From Escherichia coli (GTDB lineage Bacteria; Pseudomonadota; Gammaproteobacteria; Enterobacterales; Enterobacteriaceae), in assembly GCF_013315695.1 (NCBI RefSeq), contig NZ_CP054353.1: DNA of 64,000 bases, one strand, 5' to 3'. The position numbers and the translations under genes are program-made. Shown piece after piece: positions 361-25,044 of this stretch. Every line of letters begins with the position of its first letter. The first letter of the stretch is position 1. The notes under the pieces were generated by a model. That model was not told the origin of the DNA. It saw only the letters and a program-made list of their open reading frames with translations, and did no database searches.

Positions 361-903
361 TTAATAATAAGTATCGGGTTTGTTACGATAGAATATTTCT
401 ATATCCTCAAGAATATGCTTTGCCTTATTGCCTGTGACTTTCTGAGATTCAATTATAGTATCGTTAAATTCTAATGTTAAAGAGAACTCTTTTTTTCCGC
501 TTTGTGTAAGTTTAACCTTATATTGATTACCAATATCAAATAAAAAGGTCCTGTAATGAGAATAATCACCTTTAACCTCCTCGGCAAAACAGCAAAGTGT
601 GCAAATATACATACAATCTTTCTTGCCTCTGATTTTGTTAACTAAATCAATAAATGCATGAAAAACTGTACTTGCAATAGAACTTGATACTTCTTCTCCA
701 GGTCTACAAAAATCTTTTGCAATTTTTAACTGTGTTTCTATATATAAAAAGAAATCTTTGGCATAAGAAAAATCTTTGGAATAAGAGATATCTTTATTAT
801 TTAGTGCATCTAGCTCAACAGGTAAAGATGTCATTTTGTTGCTATTCACATATGATATATTCATATCATCATCTCCTTCGAGAGTAATAAAATTAGTCAC
901 CAT
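361..903 (-). CDS. Hypothetical protein (180 aa), AT-rich orphan ORF between tyrB and aphA
   Basis: Longest ORF in the 1.1-kb tyrB-aphA spacer; Lys/Asn/Ile/Phe-rich composition; no recognisable motif. May correspond to an extended form of the small K-12 gene at this position (recalled as yjbS), uncertain. Confidence 0.35.
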   Translation of the reverse strand: MVTNFITLEGDDDMNISYVNSNKMTSLPVELDALNNKDISYSKDFSYAKDFFLYIETQLKIAKDFCRPGEEVSSSIASTVFHAFIDLVNKIRGKKDCMYICTLCCFAEEVKGDYSHYRTFLFDIGNQYKVKLTQSGKKEFSLTLEFNDTIIESQKVTGNKAKHILEDIEIFYRNKPDTYY

Positions 904-5976: not shown

Positions 5977-6513
5977 ATGGCCAGCAGAGGCGTAAACAAG
6001 GTTATTCTCGTTGGTAATCTGGGTCAGGACCCGGAAGTACGCTACATGCCAAATGGTGGCGCAGTTGCCAACATTACGCTGGCTACTTCCGAATCCTGGC
6101 GTGACAAAGCGACCGGCGAGATGAAAGAGCAGACTGAATGGCACCGCGTTGTGCTGTTCGGCAAACTGGCAGAAGTAGCCAGCGAATATCTGCGTAAAGG
6201 TTCTCAGGTTTATATCGAAGGTCAGCTGCGTACCCGCAAATGGACCGATCAATCCGGTCAGGATCGCTACACCACAGAAGTCGTGGTGAACGTTGGCGGC
6301 ACCATGCAGATGCTGGGTGGTCGTCAGGGTGGTGGCGCTCCGGCAGGTGGCAATATCGGTGGTGGTCAGCCGCAGGGTGGTTGGGGTCAGCCTCAGCAGC
6401 CGCAGGGTGGCAATCAGTTCAGCGGCGGCGCGCAGTCTCGCCCGCAGCAGTCCGCTCCGGCAGCGCCGTCTAACGAGCCGCCGATGGACTTTGATGACGA
6501 TATTCCGTTCTAG
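5977..6513 (+). CDS. ssb: Single-stranded DNA-binding protein (178 aa)
   Basis: [32 protein letters not shown]... OB-fold N-terminus, Gly/Gln/Pro-rich linker, acidic tip DFDDDIPF. Confidence 0.97.
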
Positions 6514-6551
6514 AGTTAACTTGTGAGTTATTTGTAAAGAATCCATACGCA

Positions 6552-6580
6552 GGCCCCTGTTAATTCAGGGGTTTTTTGTT
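6552..6580 (+). terminator. Intrinsic terminator of ssb
   Basis: Hairpin caggcccctg-ttaattc-aggggttttttg. Confidence 0.7.
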
Positions 6581-6650
6581 TCTATCGTCGGAAAAAGTGT
6601 CTTGTATAAATTGGTGATTTTTCACATAAAGTGTACCTTGTAATTGTGTA

Positions 6651-7919
6651 ATGTTTATGGGGTGTGAGTGCATGGAAAAGAACTACAGAGTTACAACATT
6701 TGTCATGGATAGTGGCGAGCGCTATTGCATGGTAGTGGATCGTGCTTCTGGGCTTCCCATGTATTACCCCACTCTGTTTCTAACAACTCAAATCCGCAAT
6801 AGAGAGGATGCTTTTTCAACGATGTTGGCGGCGGCTAACAACCTGGTTATGTTGTTACGCTTTGTAGAGAGTCGCGACATTGACCTTGAGCAGCGGTTTT
6901 TGACCAAAGACTTCTTCAAGCCACATGAGCTGGATGATCTGCGAGATTTTGCTCAGTGCAAACAAAGAAAGGGGCCATTAACTGTGTCCTCTACCTCTTG
7001 GTTGGCCGATGCGATGACCGATATCGTTGATAACGGGACACAGCATTCCCGGCTAACAACGTTTGCCAACTATTTACACTGGTATGCGATGCATATCTTA
7101 AAGACGACAGAACTGGAAGTTGTCGAAAAGATCAATGCTATGGCGGCGCAGATAAAGACGCGCCGACCATCTAAAAAGCGCAGAAACCACGACTTACAAG
7201 ACAGGTCATTGAGTGATGTTCAATTGGACGCGCTATTTGAAGTCATCCAGCCTAGATCAGAGTTAAACCCTTTCTCAATAGATGTGCAGCGCCGCAATCG
7301 GCTGATGATCTTACTTCTGTTTTATCTTGGCATCCGAGGTGGTGAATTATTAAATATAAGAATACAGGACATAGATTTTAGCGCTAACAGGATCCGTATC
7401 GTTAGGAGAGCAGATGAACAAGCTGACTCTAGAACCAATGAGCCTAATGCTAAAACTAGAGAACGGCTCTTACCGTTGGCTGAATCCTTAGCTCAAGAAC
7501 TGCATAGTTATATCCTTCAAGATCGCCGGAAAGTCAGAAATGCGAAGAAAAATGACTATCTGTTTGTAACTTACAAGAGTGGACCAACTCTGGGAAATCC
7601 TATCTCCAAAGGGGGATATCATAAAATTTTTTCCGTAGTCAGGTCTATATCACCGCAATTGTATGCAGCGACAGGACATTCGCTCCGCCACACTTGGAAT
7701 CGCAAGTTTTCAGAAAGAATGGATGCCATGAATGAGCAAGTCAGCGAGGAACGCCAAGAGCAACTTCGTTCGTACTTAATGGGCTGGAGAGATGGCTCGG
7801 GAACCGCAGCGACTTACAACAAGCGTTTCATTCGGCAAAAAGGTTTTGAGGCCGCCTTGGCATTACAAGCAGGTAACGGCACTAGCTTGCCAGAGGACTT
7901 CAAGGATGACCATGAATAA
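6651..7919 (+). CDS. Tyrosine recombinase 1 of trio (integrase family, 422 aa; start may be the internal Met at 6672)
   Basis: Catalytic signature seen in translation: ...GIRGGELLNI... (Arg), HSLRHTW (His-x-x-Arg), LMGWRDGSGTAATYNKRF (Tyr nucleophile). Confidence 0.8.
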   Translation: MFMGCECMEKNYRVTTFVMDSGERYCMVVDRASGLPMYYPTLFLTTQIRNREDAFSTMLAAANNLVMLLRFVESRDIDLEQRFLTKDFFKPHELDDLRDFAQCKQRKGPLTVSSTSWLADAMTDIVDNGTQHSRLTTFANYLHWYAMHILKTTELEVVEKINAMAAQIKTRRPSKKRRNHDLQDRSLSDVQLDALFEVIQPRSELNPFSIDVQRRNRLMILLLFYLGIRGGELLNIRIQDIDFSANRIRIVRRADEQADSRTNEPNAKTRERLLPLAESLAQELHSYILQDRRKVRNAKKNDYLFVTYKSGPTLGNPISKGGYHKIFSVVRSISPQLYAATGHSLRHTWNRKFSERMDAMNEQVSEERQEQLRSYLMGWRDGSGTAATYNKRFIRQKGFEAALALQAGNGTSLPEDFKDDHE

Positions 7920-9444
7920 CCTCTTACTTGGGTTAGTACCAGAACGAATCCGTGCCAGGGCCAATGGCTACTCTTTTCTGTTGTATGACACATCGTGGAC
8001 ATTGGATAGAAATATCACTATTAATCTTGCTGATATTCACCATTACTTGTCAGATGGGACGCTAGATGGCTGCCTGCGTACACTGGCGTTTTATGCATCC
8101 AATCGTTCTTCTTCTCATACAAAAAATATTCTTGAACGGTTTCAGCACATGCTGCGTGAGACTGACGCGAGAGAAATTACTGATACGGTATTGATTAATT
8201 ATCGGTCGATGCTGTCGCCTGCAACAGAATGGTATCTAGCAACCATCCGTGGCTTTCTTCGATCCTGGCACGAACTGGGCTATCCCGGCATCAGTAAGGA
8301 GGTGAACCGCTTGCTAGATGGCTGGACGCTAAAGGGTAATCGTAAGGGGGATGCGGTTAAGCGCATGGATCCTCAAGAGGGGCCACTGACGGATAATGAG
8401 CTGACAGCGTTTAACGAGGGGGCTGTTCGGGCTTATGAAAAGAGCTTAATTACTATAGCTGAGTTGGCTATAGCACTTGGCACCAGTCATACAGGACGTC
8501 GTCCCATTCAGATCTCGCTGCTTCGTGTGGTCGATGTCCTTTGTGGTAAAAATGGAAAGGGAGAGCCCTTCTATGTGTTGAATGTGCCGCGAGCCAAGCA
8601 GCGCAGCAGCTCTTTCCGAATAAACTTCAAACCATTTGCAATATCACTGGAACTATGGGCAATCCTGAGTGCTCAGGCAAGAAATGCGATTGCGCAGGTT
8701 GAAAATCGTTTGGGGTTTGAATTGCAGGAAGATGACCGGCAGCAAATCCCTCTTTTTCCTGATCTTGATGTGTTAGATGCCGTCCAATCTCCTTATGAAT
8801 TCCGCCAACTGCATGCTACCGACAAACTCCACATTCCCGCCGCAGAGATAACCGACACCCTCCAATACATCGTAGAAAAGTCCGACATCCGGTCGGAACG
8901 TACCGGTGAGCTATTACATATCAATGCTCGTCGTTTTCGTTATACCACAGGCACACGAGCTGCCCGGGAAGGCTTTGGCGAGCTGGTGATTGCGGAACTG
9001 CTTGACCACGCGGACACCCAAAACGCAGGCGTTTACATCAAGAATATCCCCGAGCATGTGAAAAAGCTTGATGAGGCGGTTGGCTTCCAATTAGCACCAT
9101 ACGCTCAGGCCTTTGTCGGGGCACTTGTCGATTCAGAGAGAGACGCGCATCGAGGTAACGACCCTACCAGTCGTATTCGGACCGAAATGGGTCAGGGTGT
9201 TGGTACTTGTGGAGAACATGGCTTTTGTGGTGCCAATGTTCCTATTCCTTGCTACACCTGCATGCATTTCCAGCCTTGGCTGGACGGCCCACATGAAGAT
9301 GTCTATCAAGGACTGCTCAACGAACGTGAACGGGTGAAAGAGATAACTGGCGACATCCAGATTGCTGCCGTACTTGATCGCAGTATTATCGCGCTGGCAG
9401 ATGTGATCATGCGTTGTGCAAAACGTCGTGAAGAGCTTAGTTAA
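7906..9444 (+). CDS. Tyrosine recombinase 2 of trio (about 513 aa)
   Basis: C-terminal region with RRFRYTTGTRAAREG and LLDHADTQNAGVYI (R/H...Y pattern); ATG at 7906 or 7912 overlaps the upstream stop at 7917-7919. The ORF-track start at 7792 is rejected as an overlap artefact. Confidence 0.75.
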   Translation: MTMNNLLLGLVPERIRARANGYSFLLYDTSWTLDRNITINLADIHHYLSDGTLDGCLRTLAFYASNRSSSHTKNILERFQHMLRETDAREITDTVLINYRSMLSPATEWYLATIRGFLRSWHELGYPGISKEVNRLLDGWTLKGNRKGDAVKRMDPQEGPLTDNELTAFNEGAVRAYEKSLITIAELAIALGTSHTGRRPIQISLLRVVDVLCGKNGKGEPFYVLNVPRAKQRSSSFRINFKPFAISLELWAILSAQARNAIAQVENRLGFELQEDDRQQIPLFPDLDVLDAVQSPYEFRQLHATDKLHIPAAEITDTLQYIVEKSDIRSERTGELLHINARRFRYTTGTRAAREGFGELVIAELLDHADTQNAGVYIKNIPEHVKKLDEAVGFQLAPYAQAFVGALVDSERDAHRGNDPTSRIRTEMGQGVGTCGEHGFCGANVPIPCYTCMHFQPWLDGPHEDVYQGLLNERERVKEITGDIQIAAVLDRSIIALADVIMRCAKRREELS

Positions 9445-9460
9445 CAGGGAGCAATAACCA

Positions 9461-11494
9461 ATGGCTGAGATTTTCCTGTTTAAGCCAAAGGCTACGCTGA
9501 CAGCAGCAGAAAACCTTGAAGCATTCATATCCCAGTGCCGAGATCAATTGACTGTATTCGGCTCTGATCTCACTTGGGAAGATCCTGTTTGGCCAAACAT
9601 AACTGTATTTGCCAAGTTGGGCATTATTACGAGAAAACCCATACTGGAAGAGACGCAAGACCCTGCTTTCATTGATTTTGCCAAAGCCTATTTCCGTTAC
9701 CAGCAGGGGCATAGCCTCTCTAGGGCAAAGAATGAAAGTAAAGCCCTCCGTGCGGTTGAGGCGGCTTTGCTTCAAGTAAATGGAAACGCAAATATTGATG
9801 GCCTGTCGATTTCTGTGCTGGATGAAGCAGCTGAATTGGCAAAGCATTACTACTCCGATGGCTCCGCATATCATTGTGGCCGTGAGATTGAGCGGCTGGC
9901 TAAGTTTGTAGCTGAAAACCAGCTTGTATCAAGTGCTGTACAAAATTGGGTCAATCCAATTAAACGTGCAGAGGATAAGAACAAAACGAGCAGAAAGGCG
10001 AAGAAAAATAGGGAAGATAAACTTCCGAGTGATATTGCTCTTAATGCGTTGGCGGAAATTTTTGCCAACGACCCAATTCATGAGCGAGACATATTTACAA
10101 CATCGGTTTTTGCCATGTTGATGTCGGCACCTTCACGTATTACTGAGGTGTTAGCACTGCCTGTGGATTGCGAGGTTTTTGAAACGGATCGTGAAGGGAT
10201 AGAACGATATGGTTGGCGTTTTTTTGCGGGGAAAGGCTATGAGGGTGATATCAAATGGATACCCACCGTGATGGTCGGTATAGCTAAGACAGCCGTAGCT
10301 AGAGCTAGAGTGCTCTCTGAAAATGCACGACAACTGGCCAAGTGGATCGAGAAACACCCGAATAAGTTTTACCGCCATGCTAACTGTCCCAGTGTAGCCG
10401 ATGATGAGCCATTGACGATGAAGCAGGTTTGTATGGCGCTCGGTTTTGCACATTACTCTAAAAAGACGTGCAGGTCGTGTCTTGGTAATCGAGGTTTAGC
10501 TAAAGAGGATGGTGTACATACTCTAAATAGCCTGTGGCAGCACACAATGGCGCGTTTACCGGATGGCTTTCCGTGGTTTGATAAAGACAAGGGAATTAGG
10601 TACAGCAATGCCTTGTTTGTACTGAACGTAAATCAGTTCCACGGGAACAGAGGATGCATACCAGTTGAGTTACATAAGCCAACCAATAATTTCTTCAACA
10701 GTGATCTGACGCCTCGTCTGTCCTTGAAAGGAAAACATGCCAGTATCTTTGATCGCCATGGTTACCATGCTGTAAACGGAGAGCCGGTGAAATTAACCTC
10801 ACATCAGGCTCGACACCTGCTCAACACCATTATCCAGCGCGGTGGCCTGTCAAACTTGGAAATTGCCAAGTGGTCGGGGCGGGCAGATGTGAAACAGAAT
10901 CGAACTTACAACCACATGACTGAATACGAACTGGTTGGCATTGCTGAACGCCTTGATCCCACAACAGCGCTATTTGGGCCTGCTGGCGAGGTGGCAAAGC
11001 ATCTGCCCGTGACTATGCAGGAGTTCAATACCTTAGAGCATGCCGCAGTCCATGTGACGGAGTATGGCTACTGTGTGCATGATTACACCATGAGTCCTTG
11101 TGAGAAATTCCGAGATTGCGTCAATTGTACCGAACAGGTTTGCATCAAAGGCGATGATGCTGAAAAGTTGGATCGCATTAAGATACGTCTGGAGAAATTA
11201 GAGCGACTGTTTTTTCTTGCTGACGCAGCAGTGGAAAGTGGTGAGATAGGAACTGATCGCTGGTATCAGTACCACAAGAAAACTGTTACCCGGCTTCGTG
11301 AACTAGTGGCTATTTTAGAGAATCCAGACATTGAAAATGGTGTCCAGATTAAGCTCCGGGGCAATGATTTCAGCCAGCTTCGCCGTGTTGTCGCAAAGAC
11401 GTCTATTGTGGCCATCGAGCAAAAAGGCAAAGAAAGTGAAGAAGCTGTGATGTTAGATGATTTGACAACTTTGTTAGGAGGTGGCCTTGGCTAA
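9461..11494 (+). CDS. Tyrosine recombinase 3 of trio (677 aa)
   Basis: LTSHQARHLLNT (H-x-x-R-H) and WSGRADVKQNRTYNHM (Tyr) motifs; RBS-like cagggag 8 nt upstream of ATG. Confidence 0.75.
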   Translation: MAEIFLFKPKATLTAAENLEAFISQCRDQLTVFGSDLTWEDPVWPNITVFAKLGIITRKPILEETQDPAFIDFAKAYFRYQQGHSLSRAKNESKALRAVEAALLQVNGNANIDGLSISVLDEAAELAKHYYSDGSAYHCGREIERLAKFVAENQLVSSAVQNWVNPIKRAEDKNKTSRKAKKNREDKLPSDIALNALAEIFANDPIHERDIFTTSVFAMLMSAPSRITEVLALPVDCEVFETDREGIERYGWRFFAGKGYEGDIKWIPTVMVGIAKTAVARARVLSENARQLAKWIEKHPNKFYRHANCPSVADDEPLTMKQVCMALGFAHYSKKTCRSCLGNRGLAKEDGVHTLNSLWQHTMARLPDGFPWFDKDKGIRYSNALFVLNVNQFHGNRGCIPVELHKPTNNFFNSDLTPRLSLKGKHASIFDRHGYHAVNGEPVKLTSHQARHLLNTIIQRGGLSNLEIAKWSGRADVKQNRTYNHMTEYELVGIAERLDPTTALFGPAGEVAKHLPVTMQEFNTLEHAAVHVTEYGYCVHDYTMSPCEKFRDCVNCTEQVCIKGDDAEKLDRIKIRLEKLERLFFLADAAVESGEIGTDRWYQYHKKTVTRLRELVAILENPDIENGVQIKLRGNDFSQLRRVVAKTSIVAIEQKGKESEEAVMLDDLTTLLGGGLG

Positions 11495-11906
11495 GCATCT
11501 GGACAATAGAGACATTAACGCCATCGTAAATCTAATTCGAGGATGGAAGGAACCAAAACTGTCCTGGTCAGCAATTTGTGAGGCGGCAGAACCATTGGTC
11601 GGAAAGTTGCCGTCAAGACAGTCCCTTAATGCACATGAGGCAATAGTGACTGCCTATCAAACAAAGAAAGAGGCGCTTAAAGGCCGTGGCCCCAAAAATC
11701 CGCGTCCAGCTAGTTTGAACATTGCAGCCGCGAGGATTGTGAATCTTGAAAGCGAAATCGAAGAGCTTAAGGAAGAGAACCGGAGGTACAAACAACAGTT
11801 TGTGATCTGGCAATACAATGCATACAAATATGGAATGACAGAACATCAACTTAATGCGCAGCTGACAAAGATTGACCGTGAGCGCTCTGATGGAGAAAGA
11901 AGATAG
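11481..11906 (+). CDS. Small protein (about 140 aa) coupled to recombinase 3; possible ginD-like accessory factor
   Basis: ORF overlaps the 3' end of recombinase 3 (GTG 11481 or TTG 11487 just after aggagg); C-terminal half has coiled-coil character (LESEIEELKEENRRYKQQ). Function not recognisable. Confidence 0.5.
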   Translation: MALAKHLDNRDINAIVNLIRGWKEPKLSWSAICEAAEPLVGKLPSRQSLNAHEAIVTAYQTKKEALKGRGPKNPRPASLNIAAARIVNLESEIEELKEENRRYKQQFVIWQYNAYKYGMTEHQLNAQLTKIDRERSDGERR

Positions 11907-11981
11907 TTGCTGAGTACGATATCGAGGGTACATTTCTCTGTGTAGGGGTAGTTATTTACAAAAAAATAGGAGAATAATTAA

Positions 11982-14900
11982 ATGGTCAAACCAAACTGGG
12001 ATAACTTTAAAGCTAAATTTAGTGAGAATCCTCAAGGTAATTTTGAGTGGTTTTGCTACTTGTTGTTCTGTCAAGAATTCAAAATGCCCGCAGGTATATT
12101 TAGATATAAGAATCAATCTGGTATCGAAACTAATCCAATAACCAAAGATAATGAAATTATCGGTTGGCAATCTAAATTCTATGACACAAAATTGTCGGAT
12201 AACAAAGCTGATCTTATAGAAATGATTGAGAAAAGCAAAAAGGCTTATCCAGGATTAAGTAAAATCATTTTCTATACTAATCAAGAGTGGGGGCAGGGGA
12301 GAAAGTCCCATGAACCTGAAGGCGATAAGAACGCTGATAATTATTTGGAAACTGTCGGAAATAGTAACGATCCCAAAATAAAAATTGAAGTTGATCAGAA
12401 AGCATATGAGTCGGGTATCGAAATAGTATGGAGAGTTGCTAGTTTTTTTGAATCACCGTTTGTAATAGTTGAGAATGAAAAGATTGCTAAACATTTCTTC
12501 TCCCTTAATGAAAGCATCTTTGATTTATTAGAAGAAAAGCGCAAGCACACAGAAAATGTTTTATATGAAATTCAAACCAATATAGAGTTCAAAGACAGAA
12601 GTATTGAAATTGACAGACGACATTGTATAGAACTTCTACATGAGAATCTAGTTCAGAAAAAAATTGTCATCGTCAGCGGAGAAGGTGGGGTTGGAAAAAC
12701 AGCAGTTATCAAAAAAATTTATGAAGCAGAAAAACAATACACTCCTTTCTATGTCTTTAAGGCTAGCGAGTTTAAAAAGGACAGTATTAATGAGCTATTC
12801 GGTGCGCATGGCTTAGACGATTTCTCTAATGCTCATCAAGACGAATTACGTAAAGTCATAGTCGTAGATTCTGCTGAAAAGCTTTTAGAACTGACCAATA
12901 TCGATCCTTTTAAAGAATTCCTGACTGTTTTAATAAAGGATAAATGGCAGGTTGTTTTCACAACCCGTAACAACTACTTGGCAGATCTGAACTATGCTTT
13001 CATAGATATTTATAATATAACTCCTGGAAACTTAGTAATAAAGAACCTTGAACGCGGCGAGCTAATAGAGTTATCTGATAACAATGGATTTAGCCTTCCT
13101 CAAGATGTTCGATTATTAGAACTAATCAAAAATCCATTTTATCTAAGTGAATATTTGAGGTTCTATACCGGTGAAAGCATCGATTATGTGAGCTTCAAAG
13201 AAAAGCTTTGGAATAAGATTATTGTCAAAAATAAACCTTCTCGGGAGCAGTGTTTCTTAGCGACTGCTTTTCAGCGGGCTAGTGAGGGCCAATTTTTTGT
13301 CTCCCCGGCATGTGATACTGGAATTTTAGATGAGTTAGTTAAAGACGGAATTGTCGGCTATGAAGCTGCTGGTTACTTCATTACACATGATATATACGAG
13401 GAATGGGCATTAGAAAAGAAAATTTCTGTCGATTATATCCGTAAAGCGAACAATAACGAGTTCTTCGAAAAAATAGGAGAATCACTTCCTGTTCGCCGTA
13501 GTTTTCGGAATTGGATATCTGAACGATTGCTTTTAGATGACCAGTCCATAAAGCCTTTTATCGCAGAAATAGTCTGTGGAGAAGGAATATCAAATTTTTG
13601 GAAAGACGAGTTATGGGTAGCTGTCCTTCTTTCCGATAATTCAAGCATATTTTTTAATTACTTTAAAAGATATTTACTTAGTAGTGACCAGAATCTATTA
13701 AAAAGACTTACTTTCTTATTGAGGCTTGCTTGCAAGGACGTTGATTACGATCTGCTTAAACAGTTAGGTGTAAGTAATTCAGATCTGCTTTCCATTAAAT
13801 ATGTTCTTACTAAGCCTAAGGGAACTGGTTGGCAGAGTGTGATCCAATTTATCTATGAAAATTTAGATGAAATAGGGATCAGAAATATTAATTTTATACT
13901 TCCTGTGATTCAGGAGTGGAATCAAAGAAACAAAGTGGGTGAAACGACTCGATTATCTAGTTTGATAGCCCTAAAATATTATCAATGGACTGTAGATGAG
14001 GATGTCTATTTATCCGGAAGGGATAATGAGAAAAATATTCTGCATACGATTCTTCATGGGGCGGCCATGATTAAACCTGAAATGGAAGAGGTTTTAGTTA
14101 AGGTTCTTAAAAATAGGTGGAACGAGCACGGTACCCCATATTTCGACCTTATGACCTTAATCCTTACTGACTTAGATTCATATCCGGTTTGGGCATCTCT
14201 CCCGGAATATGTTCTACAATTGGCAGATCTGTTCTGGTATCGGCCACTTAAAGAAACAGGCGAACGTTATCACAGTATGGATATTGAAGATGAGTTCGGT
14301 CTATTTAGGTCTCATCACGACTATTATCCAGAAAGTCCATATCAGACTCCTATATATTGGTTACTACAATCACAGTTCAAAAAAACAATAGACTTTATTC
14401 TTGATTTTACGAACAAGACAACGATATGTTTTGCCCACTCCCATTTTGCTAAAAACGAAATTGAAGAAGTCGATGTCTTTATTGAAGAAGGAAAGTTTAT
14501 AAAGCAATATATATGCAATCGTCTGTGGTGCTCATATCGAGGAACACAGGTCTCTACCTACTTACTTTCATCAATTCATATGGCATTGGAAAAATTTTTT
14601 CTTGAGAATTTTAAAAATGCAGACTCGAAAGTGTTGGAAAGTTGGCTTCTTTTCTTGTTAAGAAATACCAAGTCAGCTTCTATTTCTGCAGTAGTTACGA
14701 GTATTGTACTTGCATTCCCTGAGAAGACATTCAATGTAGCTAAAGTACTATTCCAAACAAAGGATTTCTTCCGTTTTGATATGAATCGAATGGTTCTAGA
14801 CAGAACACATAAAAGTTCATTAATCTCCCTCAGGGATGGCTTTGGCGGTACAGATTACAGAAACTCTTTGCACGAAGAAGATAGAATTAAAGCTTGCGAT

Positions 14901-16745
14901 GATGTGCATAGAAATACTTATCTTGAAAATCTTGCCTTGCATTATCAAATTTTCAGGAGTGAAAATGTAACGGAGAAAGATGTCATTGAAAGGCAACAAG
15001 TGCTCTGGGGTATTTTCGATAAATACTATAATCAGCTTCCAGATGAAGCTCAAGAAACTGAAGCCGATAAGACGTGGAGGCTCTGCTTGGCAAGAATGGA
15101 TCGGCGAAAGATGAAAATAACTACCAAGGAGAAAGATGAAGGGATTGAGATATCATTCAATCCTGAGATTGACCCTAAACTAAAGCAATATAGTGAGGAA
15201 GCAATAAAGAAAAACTCCGAGCATATGAAGTATGTAACGCTGAAACTATGGGCAAGCTATAAAAGAGAAAAGGATGAACGTTATAAGAATTATGGAATGT
15301 ATGAGGACAATCCGCAAATTGCTTTACAAGAGACCAAAGAAATAATAAAAAAGCTTAATGAGGAAGGGGGTGAAGATTTCAGACTATTAAATGGTAATAT
15401 ACCAGCAGACGTTTGTTCTGTATTACTGTTAGATTACTTTAATCAGTTGAATAATGAAGAGAGAGAATATTGTAAAGATATTGTTCTAGCATATTCTCAA
15501 CTTCCGTTGAAGGAAGGCTATAATTATCAGGTACAAGATGGGACAACCTCGGCAATTTCAGCCTTACCCGTGATTTATCATAATTATCCAATGGAAAGGG
15601 AGACTATAAAAACAATATTACTTTTGACACTGTTTAATGACCACTCTATTGGAATGGCAGGTGGGCGCTACTCAGTATTTCCTAGTATGGTGATTCATAA
15701 ATTATGGCTAGACTATTTTGATGATATGCAGTCTCTATTGTTTGGTTTTTTGATTTTAAAGCCAAAGTATGTAATTCTTTCAAGAAAAATCATTCATGAA
15801 AGTTATCGTCAAGTAGACTATGACATTAAAAAAATAAATATTAATAAGGTGTTTTTAAATAACTATAAGCATTGCATATCAAATGTCATCGATAATAAAA
15901 TATCTATAGATGATTTGGGAAGTATAGATATAGTTGATCTACATATTTTGAACACAGCTTTCCAATTAATTCCAGTTGATACTGTTAATATTGAACATAA
16001 GCAATTGGTTTCCTTAATTGTTAAAAGATTTTCTACAAGCCTATTGTCAAGTGTTCGAGAAGATAGAGTTGATTACGCTCTTCGGCAGTCTTTCTTGGAA
16101 AGATTTGCCTACTTTACGCTTCATGCGCCCGTGAGCGATATTCCCGATTATATAAAACCTTTTCTTGATGGTTTCAACGGTTCAGAGCCTATTTCAGAGT
16201 TATTTAAAAAATTTATTCTCGTCGAAGATAGATTAAATACTTACGCCAAATTTTGGAAGGTTTGGGATTTGTTTTTTGATAAAGTGGTTACTTTGTGCAA
16301 GGATGGAGATAGGTATTGGTATGTAGATAAAATTATAAAAAGTTACCTTTTTGCTGAATCTCCATGGAAAGAAAACTCTAATGGTTGGCACACATTTAAA
16401 GATAGCAATAGTCAATTCTTTTGCGATGTATCTAGGACTATGGGCCATTGCCCTTCAACTTTATATTCTCTTGCCAAATCTTTGAATAACATTGCCAGTT
16501 GCTATCTTAATCAAGGTATAACCTGGCTTTCAGAAATGTTGTCGGTTAATAAAAAGCTATGGGAAAAGAAATTGGAAAATGATACTGTTTATTTTTTAGA
16601 ATGTTTGGTTAGGCGGTATATTAACACTGAGCGTGAGCGAATTAGACGAACCAAACAGTTGAAAGAAGAGGTCTTAGTAATATTGGATTTTTTGGTAGAG
16701 AAAGGATCTGTTGTTGGTTATATGTCACGGGAAAATATTCTGTGA
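11982..16745 (+). CDS. Large STAND-type P-loop NTPase (1587 aa): N-terminal unknown domain (about 1-220), NTPase core (about 225-330), about 1250-aa helical C-terminal region; candidate anti-phage (Avs-like) protein
   Basis: Strong RBS (aggag, 9-nt spacer). Walker A GEGGVGKT (aa 233-240), Walker B VIVVDSAE (aa 292-299), TTR motif in QVVFTTRN (aa 323-330) typical of STAND NTPases. Very AT-rich codon usage; no transmembrane or secretion signals noticed. Confidence 0.8.
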   Translation: MVKPNWDNFKAKFSENPQGNFEWFCYLLFCQEFKMPAGIFRYKNQSGIETNPITKDNEIIGWQSKFYDTKLSDNKADLIEMIEKSKKAYPGLSKIIFYTNQEWGQGRKSHEPEGDKNADNYLETVGNSNDPKIKIEVDQKAYESGIEIVWRVASFFESPFVIVENEKIAKHFFSLNESIFDLLEEKRKHTENVLYEIQTNIEFKDRSIEIDRRHCIELLHENLVQKKIVIVSGEGGVGKTAVIKKIYEAEKQYTPFYVFKASEFKKDSINELFGAHGLDDFSNAHQDELRKVIVVDSAEKLLELTNIDPFKEFLTVLIKDKWQVVFTTRNNYLADLNYAFIDIYNITPGNLVIKNLERGELIELSDNNGFSLPQDVRLLELIKNPFYLSEYLRFYTGESIDYVSFKEKLWNKIIVKNKPSREQCFLATAFQRASEGQFFVSPACDTGILDELVKDGIVGYEAAGYFITHDIYEEWALEKKISVDYIRKANNNEFFEKIGESLPVRRSFRNWISERLLLDDQSIKPFIAEIVCGEGISNFWKDELWVAVLLSDNSSIFFNYFKRYLLSSDQNLLKRLTFLLRLACKDVDYDLLKQLGVSNSDLLSIKYVLTKPKGTGWQSVIQFIYENLDEIGIRNINFILPVIQEWNQRNKVGETTRLSSLIALKYYQWTVDEDVYLSGRDNEKNILHTILHGAAMIKPEMEEVLVKVLKNRWNEHGTPYFDLMTLILTDLDSYPVWASLPEYVLQLADLFWYRPLKETGERYHSMDIEDEFGLFRSHHDYYPESPYQTPIYWLLQSQFKKTIDFILDFTNKTTICFAHSHFAKNEIEEVDVFIEEGKFIKQYICNRLWCSYRGTQVSTYLLSSIHMALEKFFLENFKNADSKVLESWLLFLLRNTKSASISAVVTSIVLAFPEKTFNVAKVLFQTKDFFRFDMNRMVLDRTHKSSLISLRDGFGGTDYRNSLHEEDRIKACDDVHRNTYLENLALHYQIFRSENVTEKDVIERQQVLWGIFDKYYNQLPDEAQETEADKTWRLCLARMDRRKMKITTKEKDEGIEISFNPEIDPKLKQYSEEAIKKNSEHMKYVTLKLWASYKREKDERYKNYGMYEDNPQIALQETKEIIKKLNEEGGEDFRLLNGNIPADVCSVLLLDYFNQLNNEEREYCKDIVLAYSQLPLKEGYNYQVQDGTTSAISALPVIYHNYPMERETIKTILLLTLFNDHSIGMAGGRYSVFPSMVIHKLWLDYFDDMQSLLFGFLILKPKYVILSRKIIHESYRQVDYDIKKININKVFLNNYKHCISNVIDNKISIDDLGSIDIVDLHILNTAFQLIPVDTVNIEHKQLVSLIVKRFSTSLLSSVREDRVDYALRQSFLERFAYFTLHAPVSDIPDYIKPFLDGFNGSEPISELFKKFILVEDRLNTYAKFWKVWDLFFDKVVTLCKDGDRYWYVDKIIKSYLFAESPWKENSNGWHTFKDSNSQFFCDVSRTMGHCPSTLYSLAKSLNNIASCYLNQGITWLSEMLSVNKKLWEKKLENDTVYFLECLVRRYINTERERIRRTKQLKEEVLVILDFLVEKGSVVGYMSRENIL

Positions 16746-16790
16746 TGTAGTTGAAAATAATAATTTTAATGAGAGCTTTTCCAATTTAGG

Positions 16791-16815
16791 CTCCAGGGAT
16801 TGGAGCCTTTTTATT
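16791..16815 (+). terminator. Intrinsic terminator after the large NTPase gene
   Basis: Hairpin ggctccaggg-a-ttggagcc followed by tttttatt. Confidence 0.6.
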
Positions 16816-16840
16816 ATCGAAAAGATTAATATCTTATAAG

Positions 16841-17059
16841 TCAATCAGTAAAACGCAGCAAAGCTCGTTGCTCTTGAATGTTCACTCCGTGATAAATTCT
16901 TTGATTACCACATAAATAACAAGAACAAGCACAAGGGGTGCAGTAAATTTTCCCTACAACTTTTTCAGTTTTAGCCAACGCAATTCGATATGTTTTTCTC
17001 TTAGATTTTAACCGAGATATATGATGACGACGCCATGCCCGATTTCTAACCATTTCCAT
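16841..17059 (-). CDS. Small basic Cys-rich hypothetical protein (72 aa)
   Basis: ORF with GGAG-type RBS; Arg/Lys-rich N-terminus and a CTPCACSCYLCG cysteine cluster (possible zinc ribbon). No family recognised. Confidence 0.3.
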   Translation of the reverse strand: MEMVRNRAWRRHHISRLKSKRKTYRIALAKTEKVVGKIYCTPCACSCYLCGNQRIYHGVNIQEQRALLRFTD

Positions 17060-17283
17060 TCACTCCAATTTTCTACCGCGGTGTTATACCGCGCCCGTAT
17101 CAATCTTTGGAGTTCGATATCGATCTGACCTTTCATGAATACCTCGGAATTTATCAATAAAGTGAGTGCTATATCATAGCTTATGGGATGAAAGTTTGAT
17201 ATTTAGCACTTTTCAGCTTTAGGTAAAGCTGTCCTCAATAAAGCTAATTTCTTGTTTATTAATGGAATTTCTATGTGGAAGTG

Positions 17284-18105
17284 TTAGAAATCCTGTTTTA
17301 CTTTATCCATCGTTAAAACTTTACTTATTATATAAGGATCATAATTTCTTATACTCATAAGGCAATTTATCAAATTGGAAACGTGGCTATCATCAGGTAT
17401 AAGTATATATTTAATATCATCGAAAGAAAAACCAATGCCAAATTCAGAGAATTTTTTACTTAAGACGGCCTTCTGGTTAGGTTCCACCACTCGCTCTAAA
17501 TTTAGGCTAGGCCATAAATCGCCAACAAACGGATGCGGTACATATCTCCATTCTTTTTCGTCAGCGTAGATATAATTCTCAATGGTTTTTTCGTTCGTCC
17601 TTTCTAATTTCCCTTTATAATTTTTCATATAGCGTAATAAATTATAAAGGTCAGCGTACTCTTCTTTAAGGCTTTCAAAATACTTACGCTCTTTATTATC
17701 AAGGATATGCCTTTTCGACCATAGCGGAATTAACGCATCCTTTAGTTTTCTAATTCTTTTATTATACTTTGAAAATAATTCACTGCCTTGATTCATGTAT
17801 AGAACGGGATGGAGATCATTTTTCTCAGCCCATTCTTTTGTTAACCCAAATCCAAATTCACCATATTTTCCACTATGATCTTTAATCTGAGAAAGCTTGA
17901 TGTCACAGAATGAAACCATTGGTACTGCGAAATTTCTTCTTCCTTTTACTCCGACTATGCGTTCACGGGCAAGAAATGGTTTAAAATAGAGTTCTGTTAA
18001 AATGCTATAGAATGCCTCTTCATTTTTAGTAAAGTGAAACAACGTTGTTGGATGTAAACTATTAACTGCTTGTATAACTGTTTCTTGGTTTTCTATAGCA
18101 CTCAT
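17284..18105 (-). CDS. AbiGi-like abortive-infection family protein (273 aa)
   Basis: N-terminal LFHFTKNEEAFYSILTE... resembles, by recall, the FHFT-type N-terminus of AbiGi-family proteins; AT-rich; convergent with the NTPase gene. Confidence 0.55.
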   Translation of the reverse strand: MSAIENQETVIQAVNSLHPTTLFHFTKNEEAFYSILTELYFKPFLARERIVGVKGRRNFAVPMVSFCDIKLSQIKDHSGKYGEFGFGLTKEWAEKNDLHPVLYMNQGSELFSKYNKRIRKLKDALIPLWSKRHILDNKERKYFESLKEEYADLYNLLRYMKNYKGKLERTNEKTIENYIYADEKEWRYVPHPFVGDLWPSLNLERVVEPNQKAVLSKKFSEFGIGFSFDDIKYILIPDDSHVSNLINCLMSIRNYDPYIISKVLTMDKVKQDF

Positions 18106-18483
18106 ATATTAACTGTTCCATAGTGTAAAACCTGACTTAGCAAAGGTTATCATACTAGTCTTTGTACTGTAAGCACACTTGGTTTAATTCCACGCACTTT
18201 TTGAGATTTCCGGTTTTTTGATCTCTTACCAAAATCTATGCCAGATTGAATCAAAGGTCCGAGCTGGGTCACCAAAAAAAGTAAAATTATGCACTTTGAT
18301 AGATTATATTTTAACTAAATTCTTTACAGTTAAATCATTTCTTATGCCTTAGTTTCTGATAAAAAAGGTTTTTTTTCACGATTTATAAGTATCAGGTTAT
18401 GTGAACCGTTCTGATTTGTCGTTAAAACAATAGGTTATATTGTTTTAAGGTGGATGATTAAAGCATCTGCCAGCCATAAAAAA

Positions 18484-18512: not shown

Positions 18513-18794
18513 TCAAGTCAAAATCATTGGCCATTGTGGCGGTGTCTGATTCATCTCTTCTATCATCACCGACTCGATGTTGTGCCAGATGGCGGTGATA
18601 TCCGCCATTGTGATGCCAAGCAACCCCATTGCGAACCAGCAGGCAGAAACCACGCCCAGACCGCTGCTGATCACTGCAAGCCCGACATAATCAGACCGAC
18701 GAAAACGGATGTTGAGTGTGCTGGCCAGAAACATCATTACGGCACTAAGAAGTTGCCAGCGAAGAAGAACCACGCCAGTGGTGAGGGTAGCCAT
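18513..18794 (-). CDS. yjcB: Small inner-membrane protein YjcB (93 aa)
   Basis: Hydrophobic ORF MATLTTGVVLLRWQLL...; position after ssb as in K-12. The ORF track extends to 18893, but a 93-aa product starting at the internal Met is expected. Confidence 0.8.
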   Translation of the reverse strand: MATLTTGVVLLRWQLLSAVMMFLASTLNIRFRRSDYVGLAVISSGLGVVSACWFAMGLLGITMADITAIWHNIESVMIEEMNQTPPQWPMILT

Positions 18795-23618: not shown

Positions 23619-25044
23619 TAATGCCAGTCAGTTAAGCAACTGACTGGCTCTTTTTCGGGGCTGTGGGGTATTTCCAGGGCCTCTCCTTTACCACTCTCGG
23701 GAAGGCCCTTTCCCTTCTTGTCGGTAATTTCACAAGTTGTCCCATACTTGCAAGATCGCGCATCAGCTCCGGTATACGTCCCGGTGAAGCGCCCTGCAAT
23801 GTCATCAGCATTCTCATCACCATTCCGCATGATTCTGAGAAACTCAGTTGATTCGGCCAGTAACCTTTCAGATGTTCCGCCATTTTAATCATCTGATATC
23901 TCACCAGATTATAAGCCAGTAAGACACCCCACAGCTCTTGCTCCACAAGCTCCGGTTTTTTACTTCTCAGCGTCAGCCTGCTCAGTTGCATCGTCTGTTT
24001 TATCTCCCTGTATCCCAGTTCGATTTCCCAGCGATGACTGTACAGATCCGCCATTTCTCCTCCGGGGAAGCGCATGGCGTCCGTCATCGACGTCAGCAGA
24101 TGGCAGACTTTTCCTTTGCGCGTCACGGTCAGCAGGCGGGCTGTCACTTCATTTCCCAGTCCCGGCCACTTTTTTCGTGCCTGCGGGCTGGTTTTCAGCT
24201 TCACCAGATGATCGCCTTTACCCAGTTTTCTGATCTCTTCATATTGCGCTCCCTTTCTGAGAGGTATCATCCAGTGGCGGTGTTCTCCCGCCAGGCTCCA
24301 GGCATTTAACAGTCCCAGTGAGTAATAACCTTTATCCATTAACGTCAGAGTGTTATCGCCGGTTTGTTCTATAAGTTGCTCAGCAAGCTCATTTTCGCTG
24401 TTCTTCATCGTGCCGAAGGCTGCAGCCGTCAGCAGATGGCTGGTCAGTTCCATCTGGCAGACCATTTTGACCTGCGGGTAGAGCGCCGGGTTCCCGGCAT
24501 GTGTCTGGCGGGGGAAGGCTGCATCGTTCTCTGGTGTATCCGGTGTGCGCCAGAACACACCATCGATGGCCAGCAGGGTCAGGCCGCACCAGTGCGGATG
24601 CGGCGTGGCGTTATGCCAGAGCTGCGCTGTTTTCGTGAACACGCGGCGGACAGCCTCACTTCCCAGGCGCTGGCGGGCCTGAATAACGGCACTGGGGGCA
24701 ACGAAGGGGCGATTGCCCGGCAGCATGATGTCCAGGCGATTCACAATCTGGTGAAGAGGTTCTTTACGCTCAAGCGCCATGCCAACAATACACCAGACCA
24801 TCATTTCGAGGGGAAGACGGCGCTTGCGTAGCGTTACAGTACCTGATTCGGCAAGGCAACGAGAGATGAGTTCGGGGTCGAGGTAATCCCCCAGAGAAGT
24901 CAGTGGGTTACGCAGAGAATCGTAACGGGATACCAGATCAAGAGCCTGTCCAATGTGCATAAAAAAATCCGGAAACAAGTGAGCGTTTCCGGATTCTTAC
25001 ACAGCCACTGGATCGGTCAACTGATCCTTAACTGATCGGCATTA
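23619..25044 (-). mobile_element. Insertion sequence IS4, complete (1426 bp)
   Basis: Terminal inverted repeats TAATGCCAGTCAGTTAAG (left) and CTTAACTGATCGGCATTA (right, 16/18 match); length 1426 bp equals canonical IS4; single transposase ORF. Confidence 0.9.
23632..24978 (-). CDS. insG: IS4 transposase (DDE family, 448-aa ORF)
   Basis: ORF fills the IS; translation recognised as IS4 transposase by recall. Confidence 0.88.

Follow-up and report, generated by a model that had tools for sequence, protein, structure and literature searches.

In the 64,000-nucleotide stretch of Escherichia coli DNA analysed here (contig NZ_CP054353.1, assembly GCF_013315695.1; hereafter the window), positions 6505-18412 are occupied by an island of 11.9 kb that is flanked by ssb, with uvrA upstream, and by yjcB, with pdeC-soxS-soxR downstream (Table 1). 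We read this island as a GInt, an element defined by ginABCD at its 5' end, cargo that begins at the ginD stop codon, a short AT-rich 3' end, flanking direct repeats and targeting of ssb (Bardaji et al., 2017; PMC5385486). Its layout would accordingly be a 5.4 kb ginABCD operon on the 5' side, followed by a cargo of avs4, a small ORF that we refer to as orf72 and an AbiGi-type gene, and then by the AT-rich right end.

Table 1. Features of the island and its borders in the window
Feature	Position	Strand	Description and basis
ssb (target gene)	5977-6513	+	annotated ssb1, product WP_000168305.1
attL core CCGTTCT	6505-6511		alignment with empty K-12-type site and plasmid copy; exact-match search
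terminator-like hairpin	6551-6574	+	island-supplied, just 3' of ssb stop; terminator scan
ginA	6672-7919 (alternative start 6651)	+	tyrosine recombinase; RefSeq 'tyrosine-type recombinase/integrase'; GC 0.454, GC3 0.471
ginB	7906-9444	+	second, larger tyrosine-recombinase-like protein; NCBIfam NF041502; GC 0.491
ginC	9461-11494	+	third, most divergent recombinase-fold protein, 677 aa; GC 0.465
ginD	11487-11906	+	small accessory protein, 139 aa
ginD-avs4 spacer	11907-11981	+	75 nt; holds GC change point and avs4 ribosome-binding site
avs4 (AVAST type 4)	11982-16745	+	STAND NTPase with N-terminal nuclease, 1587 aa
terminator-like hairpin after avs4	16788-16808	+	terminator scan: 9-pair stem, then T-run
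orf72	16841-17059	-	small basic Cys-rich ORF, convergent to avs4; phrog_4499, E = 5.7e-16
AbiGi-family gene	17284-18105	-	solitary, 273 aa; ADP-ribosyltransferase fold predicted
AT-rich right end	18106-18405		non-coding, 300 nt; GC 0.31
attR core CCGTTCT	18406-18412		backbone homology restarts here
yjcB	18513-18794	-	beyond attR

The four gin genes lie on one strand, overlapping or 16 nt apart, and form a four-gene operon (6672-11906). GinA matched XerC/XerD/XerA-like NCBIfam models (E = 2.5e-13), and Pfam PF00589 is recorded on its orthologues. GinB scored 677 bits against NF041502 ('site-specific integrase'; cut-off 350) and gave a weak C-terminal match to PF00589 (E = 0.014), whilst for GinC a faint C-terminal match to the same domain was all that was obtained (E = 0.55), and the profile searches returned no family match for GinD. 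A tblastn search with GinC recovered four-gene modules on Pseudomonas and Stutzerimonas plasmids at 29-39 % identity (E = 3e-69 to 3e-134); the Stutzerimonas module that was inspected has the same integrase-integrase-small ORF order, with a shorter hypothetical gene at the ginA position. Among 5,426 complete E. coli genomes the gin module was present in 375 (6.9 %) and the whole island in 358, the site being otherwise mostly empty; for comparison, GInts have been counted in 7.5 % of Escherichia replicons (Idola et al., 2023; PMC10214605).

The island is flanked by a perfect direct repeat of 7 nt, CCGTTCT, which is also found at both ends of a plasmid copy described below. At the left junction this core comprises the final codons of ssb, CCG TTC (Pro-Phe), together with the first base of the stop codon, and a TAG from the island replaces the TGA. 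The SSB protein is unchanged: RP437, in which the site is empty, encodes WP_000168305.1 just as strains with the island do. The hairpin and T-run of the left end are kept in all seven aligned GInt left ends, and at the other end several blocks near attR (TAAAATT, TTTAACTAAA and ATCAGGT..GAACCGTTCT) are common to the island of strain Y5 despite its different cargo. Outside the 7-nt core no convincing similarity was seen between the two junctions. A tRNA gene as the target was considered and dismissed: window positions 1-30,000 contain no tRNA or tmRNA gene, and the target is ssb. Within ssb, the 12 nt immediately 5' of the attL core (6493-6504) read GATGACGATATT in the window and GATGATGACATT in K-12 and in four other aligned E. 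coli islands; this amounts to two synonymous differences of the approximately eight in all of ssb, and GATATT is common to the Citrobacter copies. The difference may represent a conversion tract from integration, or a crossover region that reaches to the left of the 7-nt core.

Compared with the GInts of Bardaji et al. (PMC5385486), the island has the same ginABCD operon, the same start of the cargo at the ginD stop, the same short and poorly conserved AT-rich 3' end, flanking direct repeats, and the same insertion into the 3' end of ssb with the protein left unchanged. As in the published elements, annotations mostly list GinC as a hypothetical protein, and no domain is recognised in GinD. 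The Gin proteins of the Pseudomonas GInts are distant, with GinC at the identity given above, and their cargo consists of toxin, resistance or metabolic genes, whereas that of the window consists of anti-phage defence genes. GInts have also been described as defence-carrying elements, and hotspot #39 is shown as occupied by one in Fig. 3D of Hochhauser et al. (2023; PMC10121019), where elements at this hotspot were classed as GInts by BLAST to the proteins of Bardaji et al.; AVAST and Hachiman are among the systems drawn according to the legend of Fig. 3. As far as the figure, its legend and the text passages of that paper go, the chromosomal site type and the element type are the same as ours with no substantive difference between the elements, and in those text passages base composition, the att core and plasmid copies are not discussed. 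The yjcB-ssb site is identified as hotspot 39 in a 2024 ISME J paper (PMC11728103). A similar plan is found in SE and Tn554 elements, which likewise carry a four-gene (SE) or three-gene (Tn554) tyrosine-recombinase and accessory module at one end, are site-specific, have no conjugation genes and bear their cargo downstream (PMC10214605). The SE proteins IntA, Tfp, IntB and Srap, however, form sequence clusters separate from GinA-D (PMC10214605), and the hallmark of SE is a 6-bp footprint with copy-out movement.

We identified seven variants of the gin module, at 80-92 % nucleotide identity, which occupy either this ssb site or the position behind ssb on plasmids. Their cargo, confirmed with PADLOC, is DRT3 plus Hachiman in the strain Y5 island; the EC09 island carries Detocs (PADLOC PDC-M60A/B/C) and a dGTPase block, a Citrobacter plasmid island Gabija and a dGTPase block, and a Citrobacter chromosomal island avs4 and PDC-S28. 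Until approximately 11,900 the window matches the Y5 and EC09 islands with an identity of 0.84-1.00; beyond this point the value is 0.3-0.5, such that the homology boundary between islands of different cargo coincides with the ginD stop (11,906). An island described at yjcB-ssb (approximately 18 kb; PMC11728103) shares the site, the gin-module family and the cargo start at the ginD stop, and differs in carrying Detocs and a block of moderate GC (0.50-0.53) that includes the dGTPase; its EC09-type gin module is 85.7 % identical to that of the window (83 % by global alignment). The relationships among the gin modules do not follow those of the cargo. Specifically, avs4 variants in GInts are 96 %, 89 % (Citrobacter) and 79 % (E. 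coli) identical to the avs4 of the window, and the module beside the 79 % variant is closest to modules that carry DRT3 plus Hachiman and Detocs. Thus, the proposal made in the original prediction that the element is a mosaic holds in the sense of gin modules with exchangeable, shuffled cargo, and the comparison of cargo across related islands that it had suggested did reveal different defence genes behind homologous gin modules.

Within the module, conservation is uneven. The 3' end of ginC together with ginD (11364-11863) has a mean pairwise identity of 0.92-0.95, compared with approximately 0.85 for the rest of the module. This conservation acts at the nucleotide level, since four-fold degenerate sites are conserved as well (identity of 0.88-0.93 in ginD versus 0.64-0.75 in ginA-C). 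The segment could be an anchor of homologous recombination for cargo exchange or contain a cis-acting site. A jump in identity had suggested a recombination breakpoint specific to the MIN9 island at approximately 11,300; this was ruled out, because the ginC-3'/ginD segment is conserved in all variants, including those of islands with other cargo.

The boundary of homology is accompanied by a step in base composition. Sliding-window GC was 0.44-0.51 over 6651-11906, 0.30-0.38 from approximately 11950 to 18400 and 0.41-0.58 beyond. A maximum-likelihood two-segment scan within the island placed the change point at 11,948 (chi2 = 181.6, p = 2e-41), separating 5,437 nt with a GC of 0.466 on the left from 6,457 nt with a GC of 0.345 on the right. 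This position is 42 nt 3' of the ginD stop and within the 75-nt spacer between ginD and avs4, the homology boundary lying approximately 40 nt upstream of it. Leaving the edges of the cargo aside, only one other 5-kb GC step of this size exists in the 64-kb window, at approximately 57,600.

For gene-wise composition we used the annotation of a near-identical genome, which has 6 mismatches over the 64-kb window. Backbone genes (n = 43) had a GC of 0.540 +/- 0.041 and a GC at third codon positions (GC3) of 0.612 +/- 0.077; the corresponding values were 0.454-0.491 and 0.443-0.471 for ginA-D, 0.349 and 0.319 for avs4, and 0.331 and 0.288 for the abiGi-like gene. In blocks of 150 codons, GC3 differed both between cargo and gin module (p = 2e-4) and between gin module and backbone (p = 2e-5), the gin module being approximately 2 standard deviations under the backbone mean. 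Composition therefore falls in three tiers (backbone, gin and cargo) and not in two. Codon adaptation to the pooled backbone genes was 0.48-0.535 for gin, 0.49 for cargo and 0.696 +/- 0.051 for the backbone, which renders the gin module (z = -3.1 to -4.2) as atypical as the cargo. Runs of A or T of at least 10 nt occurred at 4.3 per kb in the cargo versus 0.8 per kb (approximately 5-fold). These data bear out a sharp GC split at approximately 11950, as well as the long A/T runs and the predominance of Lys, Asn, Ile, Phe and Tyr in the cargo proteins, all of which had been noted by eye. They contradict the companion view that the recombinase genes are near-backbone and enterobacterial-like in composition, given their GC3 of 0.46 versus 0.61 and their low codon adaptation. 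As such, of the two analyses that had been suggested, GC and GC3 do separate the modules, but codon adaptation is equally poor in both. In addition, the right end of the AT-rich block had been set at 18,370, whilst the junction is in fact at 18,405/18,406.

One might suppose that this split is a by-product of protein composition, with residues such as Lys, Asn, Ile, Phe and Tyr forcing a low GC at codon positions 1 and 2. The combined fraction of these five residues is indeed 0.33-0.35 in the cargo proteins, compared with 0.24 in gin and 0.20 in backbone proteins, GC at second codon positions of avs4 is 0.29, and the Avs4 sequence is unusually conserved across phyla (50-70 % identity). However, the largest gap is found at the silent third position (GC3 of 0.32 and 0.29 in the cargo versus 0.46 in gin and 0.61 in the backbone), and the non-coding segments of the cargo are as AT-rich as its genes (GC 0.31-0.36). 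Amino acid composition as the sole cause of the low GC is refuted by these two observations, and we consider this explanation of the split to be very improbable.

The principal cargo gene is a known defence gene. Its product scored 2361 bits against the PADLOC Avs4 profile and 2065.9 bits against NCBIfam NF041815 (cut-off 1500; residues 5-1587), and is collinear with the solved EcAvs4 chain (PDB 8dgf_A) over residues 1-1587, from which follows an architecture of N-terminal nuclease, STAND NTPase with P-loop and C-terminal sensor. A Walker A motif, GEGGVGKT, is present at residues 231-238, and a comparison of 18 homologues showed no variation at G233, G235, G236, G238, K239 and T240. A single difference from EcAvs4 (8DGF), N345K, was seen within the first 406 residues. 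By its sequence, the product is essentially EcAvs4, and we found nothing else to set the two apart except the native setting seen in the window, where the gene comes first among the cargo of a GInt. EcAvs4 reportedly binds the phage portal protein, tetramerises and degrades DNA via its N-terminal nuclease, and is said to have protected E. coli against phage in plaque assays when cloned. The Avs4 of the window would thus act as a sensor that oligomerises on the portal protein and then degrades DNA. The spacer ahead of avs4 has the same length, 75 nt, in the avs4-carrying GInts compared; of these four, three keep AGGAGAATAATTAAATG, whilst MIN9 departs from it at one position.

The origin of the low GC was approached through relatives of avs4. 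Homologues with 35-69 % identity are spread over the Bacteria and the Archaea, and a peptide-pattern search of species representatives across many phyla gave a sample of 61 genomes. In these 61 loci the mean GC of the gene was 0.333 versus 0.394 for the distal flanks, and it was the lower of the two in 52. In low-GC hosts avs4 GC3 equals that of the host (0.247 versus 0.246), and in hosts with a flank GC3 > 0.45 it lags behind (0.364 versus 0.526); overall, avs4 lies under host composition at synonymous sites in 44 of 54 loci. Other cassettes in GInts have compositions of their own, with a GC of 0.30-0.32 for DRT3, 0.31-0.34 for Detocs, 0.44 for Hachiman and 0.50-0.53 for the dGTPase block, whereas the gin modules of all GInts compared are at 0.44-0.49. 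The gin module would belong to an enterobacterial GInt lineage that is stable at a GC of approximately 0.44-0.49, and each defence cassette would keep the composition of its own family, which for avs4 is approximately 0.30-0.35 across many phyla.

The original prediction had pointed to a different history, here spelled out as the recent capture, by a module of enterobacterial type, of a block from one low-GC donor (a Firmicute, for example) that has not yet ameliorated and is silenced by H-NS and cryptic. The three GC levels (0.345 in cargo, 0.466 in gin and 0.54 in backbone) would agree with this, as would the fact that avs4 is commonest in low-GC hosts, where its GC3 matches theirs, and a low-GC ultimate origin of the avs4 family is plausible. 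Nevertheless, the gin module is not backbone-like, and the nearest relatives of the window avs4 are all enterobacterial, the best match outside the Enterobacterales being at approximately 69 %, with no close low-GC relative found. Moreover, the 89 % (Citrobacter) and 79 % (E. coli) variants already occupy the same slot, as first cargo genes of ssb GInts with the same spacer length and ribosome-binding site, and they keep a GC3 of 0.319-0.322 even though their four-fold-site identity has fallen to 0.78 and 0.61, respectively. Across the window, MIN9, Citrobacter, the 79 % E. coli variant and Pantoea, avs4 GC3 is 0.319-0.325, in place of the 0.36-0.37 (89 % variant) and 0.40-0.42 (79 % variant) that are predicted by a model of relaxation toward a core GC3 of 0.61. 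The cargo is also no single captured block, since avs4, orf72 and abiGi each occur independently of one another elsewhere. We therefore regard capture from one recent low-GC donor as rather improbable: the AT-richness of avs4 belongs to its family and its GC3 is stable, so that this part of the mosaic proposal was not upheld. In Pantoea vagans (8955-16379 of the stretch examined) we observed a decayed GInt, in which an internal deletion has removed most of ginA-ginD, fusing the left end and the 5' part of ginA to the 3' part of ginD, whilst avs4 (95.5 % aa identity), orf72 and abiGi are intact. The GC3 of this cargo is 0.26-0.33, compared with 0.66-0.69 in the adjoining core genes.

Taken together, we place the probability at about 0.85 that positions 6505-18412 are one GInt (Tn6571-family) island, inserted at CCGTTCT in the last codons of ssb at hotspot #39, in which a gin operon is joined to cargo of separate history and in which the pairing of GInt and avs4 is old and not a recent capture. 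The two compositions within the island are then accounted for by the separate histories of gin module and cargo, and the data show two stable compositional states that have long existed side by side as opposed to a fresh capture. A number of points weigh against this assignment or parts of it. The repeats of published GInts are 10-17 nt and imperfect (PMC5385486), compared with the perfect 7-nt core of the window, and homology to GInts rests on tblastn to the Pseudomonas and Stutzerimonas modules together with the classification of Hochhauser et al. With regard to age, the argument for an old pairing assumes that the 79-89 % avs4 variants diverged whilst in enterobacterial GInts, and it is a possible alternative that the same slot received avs4 several times, each time independently, from a pool of AT-rich DNA. 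The relaxation model is crude: it has two states, takes 0.61 as the core equilibrium GC3 and supposes that 60-80 % of substitutions alter the GC class. In the sample of 61 loci, low-GC taxa and metagenome-assembled genomes are heavily represented, and the flanks may themselves be island DNA; in addition, a few avs4 homologues are GC-rich (GC3 0.51-0.68), meaning that low GC is not obligatory.

The constancy of avs4 GC3 raises a further explanation, in which AT-richness is actively maintained by selection, with H-NS binding and/or slow translation holding a self-toxic sensor-nuclease at a low level and the GC step separating a readable operon from a damped cargo. In agreement with this, avs4 GC3 is 0.32 in five enterobacterial contexts where 0.36-0.42 was predicted, and this holds even in the decayed, immobile GInt of Pantoea beside core genes of far higher GC3; avs4 is furthermore under host GC3 in most loci of the wider sample, and the unrelated DRT3 and Detocs cassettes are as AT-rich. 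Set against these observations are the higher GC of Hachiman and of the dGTPase block, the avs4 homologues with GC3 of 0.51-0.68 and the fact that the same pattern would arise, with no selection for silencing, from an AT bias shared generally by mobile elements and accessory genes of weak expression. On balance we judge selective maintenance to be unlikely. The more specific version, in which defence cargo is kept at a GC3 of approximately 0.3 as a functional partition, its AT-richness limiting the dose of the sensor-nuclease through H-NS/StpA binding or slow translation whilst the gin operon is freely expressed, we hold to be improbable. The stability may be due to selection (for silencing or dosage control) or to an AT bias that mobile genes of weak expression have in general.

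In enterobacteria, AT-rich islands gained by horizontal transfer are typically silenced by H-NS, and the original prediction had taken from this that the cargo may be cryptic under laboratory conditions. The composition is of the kind that H-NS prefers: 90 % of the 200-nt windows in the cargo have a GC < 0.40, versus 6 % in the backbone, and matches to the TCGATAAATT-like high-affinity H-NS motif occur at 3.1 per kb versus 1.1 per kb. Like known H-NS-silenced islands, the cargo is a multi-kb block with a GC of 0.345 in a genome of approximately 0.51-0.53 that is rich in A/T runs and motif matches; as judged from its sequence, silencing of the cargo is plausible, and in this respect the composition speaks for the donor scenario. 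Unlike those islands, however, the avs4 of the window may depend on transcription from the gin operon. The ginD-avs4 spacer contains neither a terminator-like site nor, at the threshold of our scan, a consensus promoter, and the nearest terminator-like sites bracket ginA to avs4 (6551-6574 and 16788-16808). Bardaji et al. (2017; PMC5385486) observed that transcription of ginABCD runs on into the cargo. Given this, and given that ginD and avs4 share a strand and are separated by 75 nt that contain no terminator, avs4 may be read through from the gin operon and not be dependent on an AT-rich promoter. The label 'cryptic' is doubtful for the cargo, because EcAvs4 is a structurally characterised and functional defence protein, reportedly so when measured on cloned DNA. 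Our literature search returned no paper that mentions both Avs4 and H-NS, and, for defence islands and H-NS silencing in E. coli, general papers on xenogeneic silencing only.

The remaining cargo genes, orf72 and the AbiGi-family gene, are located between avs4 and attR, an interval in which orf72 is the largest ORF other than the AbiGi gene, the remaining small ORFs being of at most 49 aa. The 72-aa product of orf72 carries the motif CTPCACSCYLCGN and matches phrog_4499, a family of unknown function; no NCBIfam match was obtained. Homologues are found at the same relative position after the 89 % avs4 of Citrobacter, after DRT3 in Y5-type GInts and on a further contig, and, at this hotspot in Enterobacter, after an AAA_13 gene. 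The ORF could have a regulatory role or mark the boundary of a cassette. A role as partner of AbiGi was considered and rejected, as orf72 also follows DRT3, the AAA_13 gene and an avs4 that is not accompanied by abiGi; a small ORF that follows the Serratia AbiGi homologue is unrelated to it.

The AbiGi-like protein matches Pfam PF10899 (1.4e-24) and PADLOC AbiGi (1.6e-44), and falls below the NCBIfam AbiGI equivalog NF042957 (45.2 bits versus a cut-off of 300). The AbiGi domain is shared with lactococcal AbiG, which consists of AbiGi and AbiGii, but the window gene is without the second component and fails the equivalog cut-off. An AbiGii partner is expected to have several hundred residues, and none was found in the island or adjoining the AbiGi relatives inspected. 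These relatives are likewise solitary, and their settings are a phage-like contig, a cluster of defence genes and the vicinity of a prophage repressor. Within the family R47, E183 and E185 do not vary and S65 hardly does, and a Foldseek search of the predicted model against the PDB gave no significant match, the top match being DarT. AbiGi has been listed among ADP-ribosyltransferase-like families, in the R-S-ExE clade (PMC12522546). From this listing and the conservation of R47, S65, E183 and E185 we infer that the protein is probably a stand-alone effector of ADP-ribosyltransferase type.

Several features of the window outside the island were also recorded. A second AT-rich patch (GC 0.29-0.32), unrelated to the island, lies in the tyrB-aphA interval (250-1250); it carries a frameshifted hypothetical gene (642-864, minus strand), and MIN9 has yjbS annotated in the same interval. 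An IS4-family transposase pseudogene with an internal stop is located between ghxP and yjcE (23632-24978), and the annotation of the near-identical genome lists further pseudogenes, including alsC and an alkyl/aryl-sulfatase.

Copies of the island and of other GInts were also found on plasmids. The closest matching strain, MSB1_4I, has a second copy of the island on its 82-kb plasmid 3 (3556-15463 of the stretch examined), and the two copies do not differ at any of 11,908 nt. The plasmid carries an ssb of its own, at the end of which CCGTTCT served as the insertion point, and the order in this leading region is ssb, island, DUF905, parB, psiB, psiA. The identity of the two copies points to recent movement within one cell. 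GInts are also situated directly behind ssb on IncF-type plasmids, namely pSD_88 of Salmonella Dublin, the Citrobacter plasmid with Gabija and pEC0430-1 of E. coli, the last of which carries a MIN9-type module. On an IncY P1-like phage-plasmid (CP083496) the order is lysozyme, ssb and a GInt with DRT3 plus Hachiman. The same CCGTTCT core is used at the chromosomal, IncF-type plasmid and IncY ssb genes. In PLSDB, 83 plasmids have a GinC relative and at least 5,000 have a homologous ssb target; among the matches listed for the latter, 4,406 are on conjugative plasmids. The occupied junction is present on 23 plasmids. A tblastn search with GinC against 50,697 phage records detected no GInt in sequenced phage genomes. 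GInts have no transfer genes, and how they spread was not clear to their discoverers in 2024, who also stated that GInts on conjugative plasmids, such as the copies found here, had not been shown before. GinABCD would excise the island and integrate it between attB sites at the 3' ends of ssb genes, those of plasmids included, and conjugative plasmids with a GInt behind ssb would then carry the island between cells. Hopping between chromosomal and plasmid ssb genes would thus be the obvious route of spread.

The element type, the hotspot and the main cargo protein are all already published, and a GC step at the border of module and cargo is expected in such an element. What the present analysis offers is the replacement of a narrative of a low-GC donor and silenced cargo with the documented GInt account, along with a demonstration of which parts of that narrative fail. 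Beyond this there are three modest leads: the route via plasmid ssb genes, the stable composition of avs4 and the small ORF that recurs between islands. The constancy of an avs4 GC3 of approximately 0.32 across diverged enterobacterial copies prompts one to ask whether defence genes are kept AT-rich or have inherited this composition, whilst the existence of chromosomal and plasmid copies that agree base for base makes a plasmid-shuttle route for GInts directly testable.

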